From Eledone cirrhosa (lineage: Eukaryota), in NCBI GenBank assembly GCA_964016885.1, contig OZ024752.1, forward strand, positions 6,758,001 through 6,822,000: a DNA stretch of 64,000 nucleotides. Reading direction: 5' to 3'. Below, piece after piece: positions 17,043-49,904 of the stretch. Each line of letters begins with the position of its first letter. Position 1 is the first letter of the stretch. Under the pieces are notes generated by a model. That model did not search any database. It had not been told where the DNA came from and was given only the letters and a program-made list of their open reading frames with translations. The position numbers and the translations under genes are program-made.

Positions 17043-17109
17043 TATTTTATCTGATGAGGACGTACTGTTGAAAATAGCTCAGTACCTCTGAAATATGTAT
17101 AATAAAATA
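17043..17109 (+). ncRNA. Type I hammerhead ribozyme motif (Penelope pseudo-LTR-like context)
   Basis: Helix I UAUUUUAU/AUAAAAUA; CUGAUGA at 17051-57; helix II GGACGUACUG/CAGUACCUCU; GAAA; quasi-palindromic UAUGUA; AUA triplet, predicted cleavage after 17101. (TA)n follows about 45 bp downstream. Confidence 0.75.
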
Positions 17110-17153
17110 TACTTGATCACATGAATGTCTATATTTGTTAATATTTTGAATTA

Positions 17154-17915
17154 ATATATATATATATATATATATATATATATATATATATATATATATA
17201 CACACACACACCTATGAATATATAGTCATTAACTGGGCTATCTAACAAGAACAGCTGAGGACAGAACAGAGTCCCCCTGAAGCTAATGAGGGCGGGGGGG
17301 GGGGGTATTCAGCATCACTGACCTAGTTTCACTATATACTACTGTGGAAGGTTGTACATACAACACACTACCTTCATACATATATATATATATATATATA
17401 TATTTATACATATATATATATATATTTATACATATATATATATATATATATATATATATATATATATTTATATACATATATATATTTATATACATATATA
17501 TATTTATATACATATATATATATTTATATATATATATATATATATATATATATATATATATATATATATTTATACATATATATATATATACATACATATA
17601 TATATATATACATACATATATATATATATTTATACATACATATATATATATTTATACATATATATATATATTTATACATATATATATATTTATACATACA
17701 TATATATATTTATACATACATATATATATTTATACATACATAGATATATTTATATATATATACATAGATATATATATATTTATACATACATATATATATA
17801 TATAGATACATACATATACACACATATATATATATATATATATATATATACATACATAGATATAGATATATTTATACAGATATATATATATATTTATACA
17901 TACATATATATATAT
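17154..17915. repeat. TA-rich microsatellites, interrupted by unique sequence at 17212-17378
   Basis: Direct reading. Confidence 0.9.
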
Positions 17916-18050
17916 CATCATCATCATCGTTTAACGTCTATCTTCCACGCTAGCATGGGTTTAGACGGGAATTGTCCCACTTGAGGAAAGATTAGGACTG
18001 TCTGGCGGGTTTTCTATGGCTGGATGCCCTTCCTAACACCAACCACGTTT
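17915..18050 (-). mobile_element. SINE family A 3' fragment
   Basis: (CAT)n tail and the GGATGCCCTTCCTAACACCAACCAC core. Confidence 0.8.
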
Positions 18051-18244
18051 ATATATATATATGTGTATGTATATACATATACATACACATATCTATATAT
18101 ATTTATACACATACACATATCTATAAATAATTATACAGAGATTGACTTTGTTAGTTTCAGAAGATCCCGTTAAGGGTGAAAGCAGCGATTCTTTGCTTAA
18201 ACTTTAATCTGTTATTTTAATAAATATAATTATACATATATATA

Positions 18245-18432
18245 TCATCATCATCATTTTTACGTCCACTTGTGCCTGCTTGCAAAGGTGGGACGGGTCC
18301 TATTCAACACACCATCTCTCCATTTGCCACAGTCCCTCGTCATCTCCACCATGAGTTTCAGCAATCTGCGGTCAGCTCTCACCACGCATTTTTTACGTGG
18401 TCTTCCTCTACTGTGTCTTCCTTCCACCAGGA
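18245..18432 (-). mobile_element. RTE LINE 3' fragment
   Basis: Reverse complement matches 7935-8140. Confidence 0.85.
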
Positions 18433-18704
18433 TTTATATATATATATATATATATGTATATAAATGAAAAGTATAGAAATTGTTGTAGTGAGAAGCTAAC
18501 AGTATTCCATAACATATATATATATGTATATATATTTTTTTTCTCTTTTTACGTCCGCTTTTCCCTGCTAGCAAGGGTGGGACGGGAACTGATTCTGACT
18601 TGTATGTATATATATAATATATATGTACATACATACACACAGAAATATATATAAATATATACACATACTTAATGTTGTACAACTGACCCACTTTCAATAT
18701 TACA

Positions 18705-18860
18705 CCATGCTTTGAAGCATAGAGTTACGTCCCTTTATGGTCTGAGTTCAAATCCCACCAAGGTTAACTTTGCCTTTCATCCTTACGGGGTTGATAAAAT
18801 AAGGTACCAGTAATACACTGGGTTATTGTTGGCCTTGTGCCAAAAGTAGAAACAATTATA
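18705..18860 (+). mobile_element. SINE family B (5'-truncated)
   Basis: Consensus match. Confidence 0.8.
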
Positions 18861-18907
18861 TTGTAGAAGGCTCTACATACAGCACACTCTACCTTTATTT
18901 ACACAAG

Positions 18908-19845
18908 GAGCATGGCTTAGTGGTTAGAGTGTGTAGCTCATTAGTTCCATACCTGGAGGGGCAATGTGTCCTTACCCCTTTACCATTTACATTACTCTAT
19001 ATTTACTACTGTATTTTCATGGTAAAGGCTTTACCTCACATAATATCTCACATAACATTTACATTATATATACTATTGTATTTTCACAGTAAAGGCTTTA
19101 CCTCACATAATATCTCACATAACATTTACATTATATATACTATTGTATTTTCACAGTAAAGGCTTTACCTCACATAATATCTCACATAACATTTACCTTA
19201 CTCTATATATACTATTGTATTTTCACAGTAAAGGCTTTACCTCACATAATATCTCACATAACATTTACATTACTCTATATTTACTACTGTATTTTCATGG
19301 TAAAGGCTTTACCTCACATAACATCTCACATAACATTTACATTACTCTATATATACTATTGTATTTTCACAGTAATGGCTTTACCTCACATAATATCTCA
19401 CATAACATTTACATTATATATACTATTGTATTTTCACAGTAAAGGCTTTACCTCACATAGTATCTCACATAACATTTACATTGCTCTATATTTACTACTG
19501 TATTTTCATGGTAAAGGCTTTACCTCACATATTAAATCTATGAGATTTTGATATTATTTATTTTGAGAATAGTACCTAAACATAAGTATGAGAGGCTAGT
19601 TTGAACAGAAAGAGGTAAGAATTCTGGCCGGATATGGCCGGTATAAATGCTAAAGGGTTAAGCAAGACACTTTATTTCACATTGCTCTAGTCAACTCTGC
19701 TGGCAAAAATTAGTTGTACTTGTATATCAAAAGACCAGCCTTGTCACACACTGTCACACTGAATCTCCCTGAGAACTGTGTGAAGGGTGCATATGTCTGT
19801 GGAATGCTCAGCCACTTGCATGTTAATTTAACAAGCAGGATGAAC
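18908..19845 (+). mobile_element. tRNA-derived SINE split by an M1 MITE insertion
   Basis: Head CATGGCTTAGTGGTTAGAG...GTGTCCTT resumes after the MITE as AAGCAAGACACTTTATTTCAC. Confidence 0.8.
18976..19657 (-). mobile_element. MITE M1 with about 8 tandem units
   Basis: TTAC|CCCTTTACCATTTAC...TAAATGCTAAAGGG|TTAA. Confidence 0.85.
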
Positions 19846-20055
19846 ACTACTGTGAGATTTGAATTGATTAAATAAAATTGTTAGAACTAATTCTAAAACA
19901 ACAACCATAACAGTATCTTGAGATTAGAATCAATATTATTTCTGAGGAATCATAGTTTGTCATCTTACAGAATCATCACCAATTAATGTCTCTTCTACCT
20001 GCTGCACACCTCTTGTATTACATATACATATAATGACGATTCTGTCCAAGCCAAT

Positions 20056-47469: not shown

Positions 47470-47922
47470 AGGTGGTCGTGGAGGTGCCACGGCAAAAAAG
47501 CACCCAGCCCATTCTGTAAAGTGGGCGTGTAGGCGCCAAGCACTCACTGTAAATGAGGTTGGTGTTAGGAAGGGCATCCAGCTGTAGAAATCAAGCCAAA
47601 TCAGTTCCTGTATGAGCAAGGCATGGTCAGCCGACCAGACACTGCCCACAACAGGACAACCCATCTAACCCATGCTAGCGTGGAAGAACGGACGTAAAAC
47701 GGTGATGATGATGATGATATATATATATATATATATATATATATATATATATATATATAAATGTGGTTGGTTCCACACTGTAAATGTGGTTGGTGTTAGG
47801 AAGGGCATCCAGCTGTAGAAAACCTGCCCGACAGTCCTATACGAGCGAGACACGGTCACCCAACCAATCTTGCCTCAAGTGGGACAACTCCCGTCTAACC
47901 CATGCTAAACGATGATGATGAT
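47470..47922 (+). mobile_element. Two tandem SINE family A 3' portions separated by (TA)n
   Basis: Core and (GAT)n tails at about 47717 and 47922. Confidence 0.8.
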
Positions 47923-48054
47923 ATATATACATACATGCTTTCTATGGCTGGTGCCCTTCCTATCACCAACCACTTTACAGAGTGTACTGGGTGTGTTTCT
48001 CATATAGATTACCAAACACTAGGGAGACACGTCCGTGACACACCTGAAAGATCC

Positions 48055-48948
48055 TCACACACACATATATATACACATATATACACATATATGATTATAT
48101 ATACACATATATACAAACACACACACACATATATATATATGTATACACATGTGGATGATAAAAAATATCTACCAACATTTACACACATATACATATATAT
48201 ATATATACAAACACACCCAGATACATACAAACATATATACTGACACATGCATACATACACACATATATATAGTTCAATGTATGCATATACATACAAACAC
48301 ACACACATATATATATATATATTGACACACATATATACATACATACACACAGACATACAAACACATATATGGAAACACACACACATATTGACACACATAT
48401 ATACATACACACATATATACATACACACACACACACACACATATATATATATATATATATACATATATATACAAACACACACACACATATATATATTGAC
48501 ACATATATACATACAGACAAACACACACATATATATTGACACACATATATACATACACACATATATACATATATACATACACATATATACATATATACAT
48601 ACACATATATACATACATACACACACACACACACACATACATACACACACATATATATATATATACACATATACACATATATATATATATATGATGGCTG
48701 CCCCCTCGTTATCGAGTATGGCCATTGCATGATATACCATTATTAATAATTATTAATTAATTCTATCATGCAATGCCTGTGTGTGAAGATATTTTTTAAA
48801 GTGAGGAAAGACTGTGCACTGTATGTATATATATATATACATGTATATATATATATACATATATATATATATATATACATATATATATATATATATACAT
48901 ATATATATATATATACATATATATATATATATATATATATATATATAT
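48055..48948. repeat. CA/TA low-complexity microsatellites
   Basis: Direct reading. Confidence 0.9.
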
Positions 48949-49081
48949 TAGAAAGTGAGGTTTTTTTTACAAAATGAAAAATAACCGAGGTGTCCTACAC
49001 GAGTGAAAGTATAAAGAAAAAGAGATGAAATCGAAAATGCAACTGAAGTCTTATTTTTTTTTAAAATATATTTATTTTGTT

Positions 49082-49119
49082 CCTTTACCGGTTTCGCAGT
49101 TCTTCTGCTTTTCAAAAGG
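49082..49119 (-). ncRNA. Minimal type I hammerhead, U3-A8 core variant
   Basis: Reverse complement of the motif at 49179-49216. Confidence 0.65.
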
Positions 49120-49178
49120 TTAGTTGAGATGGGGCAGCTCACATGTGAGAAAAACCACAGACCCTCCATCTCAACTCA

Positions 49179-49216
49179 CCTTTTGAAAAGCAGAAGAACT
49201 GCGAAACCGGTAAAGG
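49179..49216 (+). ncRNA. Minimal type I hammerhead, U3-A8 core variant
   Basis: CCUU UUGAAAA GCAG AAGAA CUGC GAAA CCGG UA AAGG. Confidence 0.65.
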
Positions 49217-49441
49217 AACCAAATAAATATATATATTTTTTAAAAAAATAAGACTCCAGTTGCATTTTCGATTTCATCTCTTTTTCTTTATATATATACA
49301 TATATATATGTAGAAGTTATATTTAATTTGTTGGGATACAACAAGCAAATATTTTTATAACTGATATAAAGCACTCAACAAATTATTGGAGTAAATATAC
49401 AATATATTAACAAATGGAAACTATATTTATAAAACCATATT

Positions 49442-49506
49442 TATTTCATTATACATATTTCAAGGACACCAAAGCAAATTATGGTACGCTTTCATCAGAT
49501 AAACTA
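49442..49506 (-). ncRNA. Type I hammerhead ribozyme motif (left arm)
   Basis: Minus strand: UAGUUUAU CUGAUGA AAGCGUACCA UAAUUUGCUU UGGUGUCCUU GAAA UAUGUA UA AUGAAAUA. Confidence 0.65.
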
Positions 49507-49839
49507 TAATATAGATCAGTTTTATAAACAAATATTGACATACCCTTAAAGAATGTGACCATGTCGGTTGGAAGCTTCTGGATATTGGGGTTACTAATTT
49601 TATTATTGGTCTATTATGCAAATTAGTGTCAGAGAGGTTTAAATCCCAGTACATTTAAATTTTTTTTCCCTATTCCAACGGCTTAATTTAAATGTACTGG
49701 GATTTAAACCTCTCCGACACTAATTTGCATAATAGACCAATAATAAAATTAGTAACCCCATTATCCGGGAGCTTCCAACCGACATGGTCGCATTCTTTAA
49801 GGGTATGTCAATATTTGTTTATAAAACTGATCTATATTA

Positions 49840-49904
49840 TATTTTATCTGATGAAAGCGCACCATAATTTGCTTTGGTGTCCTTGAAATATGTATAATGA
49901 AATA
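49840..49904 (+). ncRNA. Type I hammerhead ribozyme motif (right arm)
   Basis: UAUUUUAU CUGAUGA AAGCGCACCA UAAUUUGCUU UGGUGUCCUU GAAA UAUGUA UA AUGAAAUA. Confidence 0.75.

Follow-up and report, generated by a model that had tools for sequence, protein, structure and literature searches.

Type I hammerhead ribozymes are known from the Penelope-like elements (PLEs) of metazoans, in which helix III is weak and palindromic and cleavage is slow, proceeding as dimers or with help (PMC4209133; PMC6765202; here and below, statements taken from the literature refer to the accessible portions of the papers cited). The class is not new, and dimer-cleaving Penelope hammerheads have already been described. 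These ribozymes are considered to lack the peripheral contacts that confer speed on other hammerheads. Among PLEs, the Hydra clade is defined by the protein motifs DKT, CxCX5C, CxxC and CxH together with (TA)n targeting (PMC8557442). Here, we analyze a stretch of 64,000 nucleotides from Eledone cirrhosa (GenBank assembly GCA_964016885.1, contig OZ024752.1, positions 6,758,001 to 6,822,000 of the forward strand), hereafter the window, that contains four hammerhead motifs. The motifs are almost certainly 3'-end hammerhead-type elements of Hydra-clade PLEs, and they represent a real, lineage-wide structural variant of the known ribozyme class, in which the fourth pair of a long helix II is a C·C or C·U mismatch with a constant 5' C.

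The motifs (HH1, HH2, HH3 and a mirror copy of HH3) and the element ends that bear them are located as follows, in window coordinates:

16994 to 17154, plus strand: HH1-bearing 3' end of a Hydra-clade Penelope-like element, 5'-truncated, with (TA)n at its end; 86–95% identity to other genomic copies from 16994.
17043 to 17109, plus strand: HH1, type I hammerhead motif of the GGACGUAC family; core 17051-17057, helix II 17058-17089, helix I of 8 bp, C·C at 17061/17086, GAAA, palindrome UAUGUA, AUA triplet, predicted cleavage after A 17101.
32210 to 32572, minus strand: HH2-bearing 3' end of a Hydra-clade element, 5'-truncated, with (TA)n tracts on both sides; 89–95% identity to other copies.
32255 to 32312, minus strand: HH2, type I hammerhead motif of the GGUCAUAG family; core at 32307, helix I of 5 bp, C·C at 32297/32277, palindrome UAUAUAUA, predicted cleavage after A 32260; its helix III has one extra TA relative to most copies of the family.
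49313 to 49954, both strands: two 5'-truncated element ends in an inverted (5'-to-5') arrangement; over 49392-49954 the arms share 93% identity, and the minus copy has a 3' tail extension.
49442 to 49506, minus strand: inverted mirror copy of HH3; core at 49498, C·C at 49488/49465; slightly decayed, with one change in helix I and one in helix II.
49840 to 49904, plus strand: HH3, type I hammerhead motif of the AAGCGCAC family; core at 49848, helix I of 8 bp, C·C at 49858/49881, palindrome UAUGUA, predicted cleavage after A 49896.

All four copies possess an intact CUGAUGA core, GAAA, an AUA cleavage triplet (of the NUH type), a helix II some 10 bp long whose fourth pair is C·C, and a palindromic helix III; these features, as well as the coordinates and pairings of the three hammerheads and the mirror copy, are exactly those given in the initial annotation of this DNA. 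A scan of the window returned exactly four matches, against 0.01 expected by chance, with a descriptor that was derived from the same four motifs; for this reason, the genome-wide counts constitute the real test. Rfam models miss these motifs: no hammerhead family was reported for the three motif regions at E values up to 10, nor for the whole window among the best 150 of 202 matches.

The 3.0-Gb assembly was searched with two patterns that fix the core and helix III and are blind to helix II. The first pattern gave 53,340 matches, against 30 for its reversed control. Pair 4 is C·C in 45,560 of them, C·U in 1,172 and C-G in 240, with neither C present in a further 173 (control 28); the counts of C·C, C-G and neither-C were obtained with the spacer range moved by one base, and the tally leaves out C·A as well as matches with only the 5' C changed. 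The second pattern, which covers other palindromes, contributed 29,411 further matches (control 56), with C opposite a pyrimidine in 28,051. Taken together, the two patterns yield 82,751 matches (controls 86), of which about 74,800 (90%) display C opposite a pyrimidine (C·Y) at pair 4; the figures are pattern matches, in which inverted pairs are counted twice and decayed cores are missed. Predominant Watson-Crick pairing at pair 4, the outcome that the initial annotation had named as contrary to its proposal, was thus not found.

The "invariant C-C" of the annotation holds for the mismatch and its 5' C, and does not hold for the 3' base, as one large family of about 19,500 matches, with the palindrome UGYGCA, is fixed for C·U (29 of 29 fetched copies). 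Because of this family, the invariant feature is the 5' C plus a pyrimidine mismatch at pair 4. The C-G and non-C matches that were listed (the first 100 of each) resemble scattered or decayed mutants of the same families or chance hits, and no C-G family was found among the long-helix forms in the genome, although C-G mutants arise. Loci chosen as C-G or non-C (L031-L060 and L071-L100) were excluded from the family tallies, and the C-G entries that appear in the family tally are re-fetched versions of excluded loci (L063, L132-L135).

The motifs terminate short inserts within (TA)n tracts. In longer copies, an open reading frame (ORF) for a reverse transcriptase (RT)-endonuclease ends about 1.1–2.0 kb upstream of the hammerhead. 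The ORF-linked loci are:

HH1 type: L219, L220.
HH2 type: L197, L228.
HH3 type: L214.
C·U family: L202 and others.
Relatives: L061, L062, L064, L065, L134, L135.

The translations of L061 and L065, inspected by eye, contain DKT, the CxCX5C linker, and the CxxC and CxH of the endonuclease, with CxH taken from the L061 DNA; at the position of the RWK motif, RWR was observed in a short-helix family. In L206, L211, L212, L214 and L234, same-strand tandem hammerheads 3.3–3.9 kb apart flank the ORF, so that the hammerhead is located in the terminal repeat of the PLE, with same-strand copies on both sides of the ORF. Tandem units of 3.3–3.9 kb are above the general Hydra-clade size of <3 kb, which is a typical size and not a diagnostic one. 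An inverted, 5'-truncated arrangement such as that at 49313-49954 has been described for PLE insertions (PMC8557442). The ORF links, the (TA)n insertion and the features of the motifs bear out the earlier assignment to type I hammerheads of Penelope-like elements with a palindromic helix III.

No Pfam match was obtained for three Hydra ORFs, RVT_1 matched only the ORF of a different element in L069, and a further Pfam scan gave weak unrelated matches only; homologues of the Hydra ORFs carry the precomputed PF26215. Trees were built with metagenome homologues, and the published Hydra proteins were compared by eye as text. The best homologues include a protein labelled Argonauta hians (39%), which falls inside the same supported clade. 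Contigs from runs labelled as two other organisms cover both HH3 cytosines with no difference listed, an indication that relatives share the mismatch trait. A search of sequencing runs listed none of RNA, a result that has no bearing on expression. No related loci were found in viral contigs. For L063, the upstream ORF was dismissed as the parent of the hammerhead, since the latter is a separate short insertion in (TA)n. The UAUCACCGG family is unplaced in the trees because no ORF could be linked to it after fetching 20 more regions, 17 of them for this family.

An alignment of 16 subfamily representatives shows that 9 of the 10 helix II pairs change on both sides, a value that none of 500 shuffles reached (the L014 row is off by one column at pairs 8-10), and the co-variation of helix II claimed earlier is thereby upheld. 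When all three helices are considered, 17 of 21 pairs change on both sides, again with 0/500 shuffles as high and slid controls far lower; the shuffle comparison is no probability, since related sequences can beat shuffles. By contrast with this co-variation, pair 4 is unpaired in 16/16 representatives (14 C·C and 2 C·U), and its 5' C is the sole invariant column of helix II. The first helix II pair is A-U in five representatives, G·U in four, G-C in three, U·U in three and A·C in one.

The ORFs of the HH2-type family are 35–46% identical to those of the other mismatch families, which is the deepest split, and across proteins so divergent, pair 4 displays one change (3' C to U). The mismatch families constitute one clade with moderate support (94/78 and 79/87; 99/95–96 without the HH2 type), and on these grounds a single origin kept over deep divergence, not convergence, is probable. 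The helix II sequences, which had been described as unrelated, are homologous, with the families lying within one clade. Parsimony on a topology set by hand from the protein tree requires one change for the two positions of pair 4 together, whereas the other columns average 3.7 each (Poisson P 0.005, or about 0.05 after allowing for nine positions). The probable single origin is also in keeping with a neutral frozen accident, in which a single G-to-C substitution in the ancestor persisted because its reversal would take a transversion; C-to-G is indeed rare (240 matches versus 1,172 for C-to-U), and pair 7 is likewise fairly constant (A-U in 12/16). We regard this explanation as very unlikely: on this account, transitions to U·C or U·U should occur unhindered, but none has been fixed, and the neighbouring pairs have fixed double transversions (pair 3 G-C, A-U and U-A; pair 8 C-G and G-C).

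Outside the lineage, pair 4 is standard. We retrieved 78 metagenome Hydra loci (the best of 536), 55 of which yielded hammerheads that collapse to 35 types. Pair 4 is Watson-Crick in 30 types, already in the loop in 4, A·A in 1 and C·Y in none. In the published Hydra table, compared by eye in the accessible portion of PMC8557442, C·C or C·U occurs in 0 of 25 families and C-G in 15. Short-helix hammerheads of the same genome also have mostly C-G at pair 4. Given the standard pair 4 outside the lineage and the C-G of its short-helix relatives, the lineage appears to have lengthened helix II and swapped the 3' G for a pyrimidine while keeping the 5' C. The short-helix families of this genome are found at loci such as L003, L006, L026 and L211, with the 4-nt palindromes CUAG, CGCG, GUAC and UGCA.

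In this genome, the mismatch was found only with a long helix II, a restriction that would suit a function in stability tuning only, whereby the mismatch would loosen the long helix II enough for the RNA to refold as a dimer, or would hold down the rate of the ribozyme. In two pairs of natural copies, the C-G form folds about 6 kcal/mol more stably than the C·C form (-15.9 vs -9.5, and -13.4 vs -7.6 in a pair that also differs at one loop base), and a stabilised stem II lowered activity in another hammerhead (PMC3088659). For such a function any mismatch anywhere would serve, yet the position and the 5' C are fixed, and U·C, U·U and A·C are fixed in no family seen. Moreover, 9 of the 35 other Hydra hammerheads have a helix II of 7–10 bp, none with a flanked pyrimidine mismatch. 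Stability tuning on its own is thus an unlikely explanation.

The canonical metazoan helix II consists of 4 bp with loop contacts to helix I (PMC4209133). Pair 4 is the last pair of this canonical helix, at the point where loop 2 meets helix I, and for this reason we tentatively favour the interpretation that C·C/C·U at this position is a selected non-canonical pair, acting as a contact site that faces helix I; one fixed mismatch amid co-varying pairs points to a specific contact. Helix II would have been lengthened to about 10 bp or more, moving loop 2 away from helix I, and the mismatch, situated where the canonical helix ends, would have taken over as the docking site. With similar reservation, and from sequence comparison, we propose a subtype of hammerhead whose long helix II holds an internal C·C/C·U pair, and in which this pair may stand in for loop 2 in making the contact, tertiary or with protein, that activates the dimer-dependent ribozyme. 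With about 74,800 matches, such a subtype, if real, would be one of the most numerous ribozyme motifs of an animal genome, with a position directly ahead of the poly(A) signal. The mismatch allows a one-base test, and natural C·C, C·U and C-G copies are present in the genome.

Several observations weigh against a selected contact. Helix I showed neither an invariant base nor one that co-varies with the mismatch, and its perfect length varies between families from about 4–5 to 8 or more bp. Given the probable single origin, the families are not independent replicates, and the corrected parsimony P is only about 0.05, on a hand-set topology. C-G is common at pair 4 of short-helix Hydra hammerheads (13 of 35 metagenome types and 15 of 25 published families), and the constancy of the 5' C may be partly inherited from it. 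Folding of the whole motif is mostly no better than that of shuffles (z from -2.5 to +0.2 for the four window copies), and other PLE hammerheads cleave poorly or need protein (PMC4209133; PMC11167929).

The need for protein touches on another explanation, in which the mismatch is a protein binding mark, most likely for the element's own RT-endonuclease, and aids ribozyme folding or RNA recognition. Cleavage by the anole Poseidon hammerhead requires the protein encoded by its ORF (PMC11167929), and minimal hammerheads are weak alone (PMC4209133). A fixed 5' C for which no RNA partner was found fits read-out by a protein, and the trait tracks one protein clade. On the other hand, the site is almost unchanged over the deepest split, at which the proteins are 35–46% identical, and the pairs adjoining pair 4 vary freely, which makes a protein mark rather doubtful in our view.

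The palindromes of helix III are calculated to form monomer hairpins at +3.6 to +4.7 kcal/mol and self-duplexes at -2.2 to -10.5 kcal/mol, and the motifs are predicted from these energies to cleave only as dimers. In the tandem elements, the two same-strand copies 3.3–3.9 kb apart could pair their palindromes to build helix III. The mirror copy of HH3, being on the opposite strand, cannot be a dimer partner within one transcript, and solo and inverted copies, among them those of the window, are likely to be remnants without activity. A poly(A)-signal hexamer (AWUAAA) lies no more than 23 nt from H17 in 15 of the 16 representatives (shuffle mean 3.1) and in 17 of the 35 other Hydra hammerheads (shuffle mean 4.1). 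Given this proximity, cleavage after AUA would trim the element RNA and split its body from the AAUAAA signal just behind; a poly(A) signal directly behind the cleavage site hints at an effect of cleavage on the element RNA. No paper on a poly(A)-signal hexamer near the cleavage site of Hydra hammerheads was found in our literature search.

Other features were observed in the window and in the fetched loci. At 34910-34992 (minus strand), an exon-like stretch with splice signals has a WW-domain-like translation, for which MAGI2 is the best, weak match (E 0.04); if the gene extends across HH2 and the mirror copy of HH3, both would be intronic on its sense strand. A tandem array with a 43-nt unit extends over approximately 38780-45800, with 157 overlapping 300-nt copies among the matches listed. 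The near-perfect inverted repeats at 22259-22344 and 22870-23054 gave spurious miRNA matches and are probably small inverted insertions. A young Hydra family is represented in L173 (1222-3360, plus strand), with intact frames of 713 aa and 150 scored matches that are 98–100% identical. The 3' motif of this family (L101-L130, L170-L175) is hammerhead-like, with the core CAGAAGA (U4 to A) and a longer, looped helix III; 31 identical matches are found in the fetched loci, a number of these loci overlapping one another.

The literature that our search covered contains no account of C·C or C·U being conserved in helix II; Lunse 2017 and Arkhipova 2017 are outside this coverage and could mention it. 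Likewise, no such conservation is described in the accessible portions of PMC7229834, PMC3088659, PMC6155905 and bioRxiv 10.64898/2026.07.22.740005. Of the undescribed subtype put forward in the initial annotation, the novelty of the mismatch stands within this coverage, and that of the hammerhead class does not.

A comparison with described systems places the motifs as follows. They share the core, the type I topology and a weak helix III with the canonical type I hammerheads of non-LTR retrozymes (Schistosoma Sm-alpha, newt and axolotl). Those ribozymes have a 4-bp helix II with loop contacts and occur in tandem repeats of 200–350 bp, whereas the window copies have a long helix II and are solo or inverted. 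The dimer-cleaving hammerheads of Lunse, Weinberg and Breaker (RNA Biol 14:1499), as presented in PMC6765202, are also of type I, with a palindromic short stem III and a PLE context. The minimal hammerheads of metazoan PLEs (Cervera and De la Pena 2014, PMC4209133) have in common with the motifs a long helix II, a helix III that is minimal and palindromic, dispersal in thousands of solo and inverted copies, and proposed cleavage as dimers. In their consensus, one base between 9 and 10.1 is left unpaired and is followed by the pair G10.1-C11.1, whereas the mismatch lineage has no such bulge and G-C in 3 of 16 representatives; the bulged-base register, tried by eye, does not pair in the window motifs and was rejected. 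In the accessible part of that alignment (56 examples, by eye), no C·C is found at pair 4, and single mismatches (U·U in Clonorchis 2 and C·A in sea urchin 1) stand without comment.

The closest correspondence is with the Hydra-clade PLE hammerheads (Craig et al. 2021, PMC8557442), which are likewise of type I, located near the 3' end of short-ORF elements with a C-terminal endonuclease, and associated with (TA)n. They have no bulge between the core and helix II (Hydra-clade examples being also mostly without an unpaired base between 9 and 10.1), a first pair of U·U, G-C or G·U, and a short self-complementary helix III. Published and metagenome Hydra hammerheads have mostly a helix II of 3–7 bp, a standard pair 4 and C15.2-G16.2 (GUH triplet). 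In the mismatch lineage, by contrast, helix II reaches about 10 bp or more, pair 4 is C·Y, the triplet is AUA with U15.2-A16.2, and the palindrome has 6 nt.

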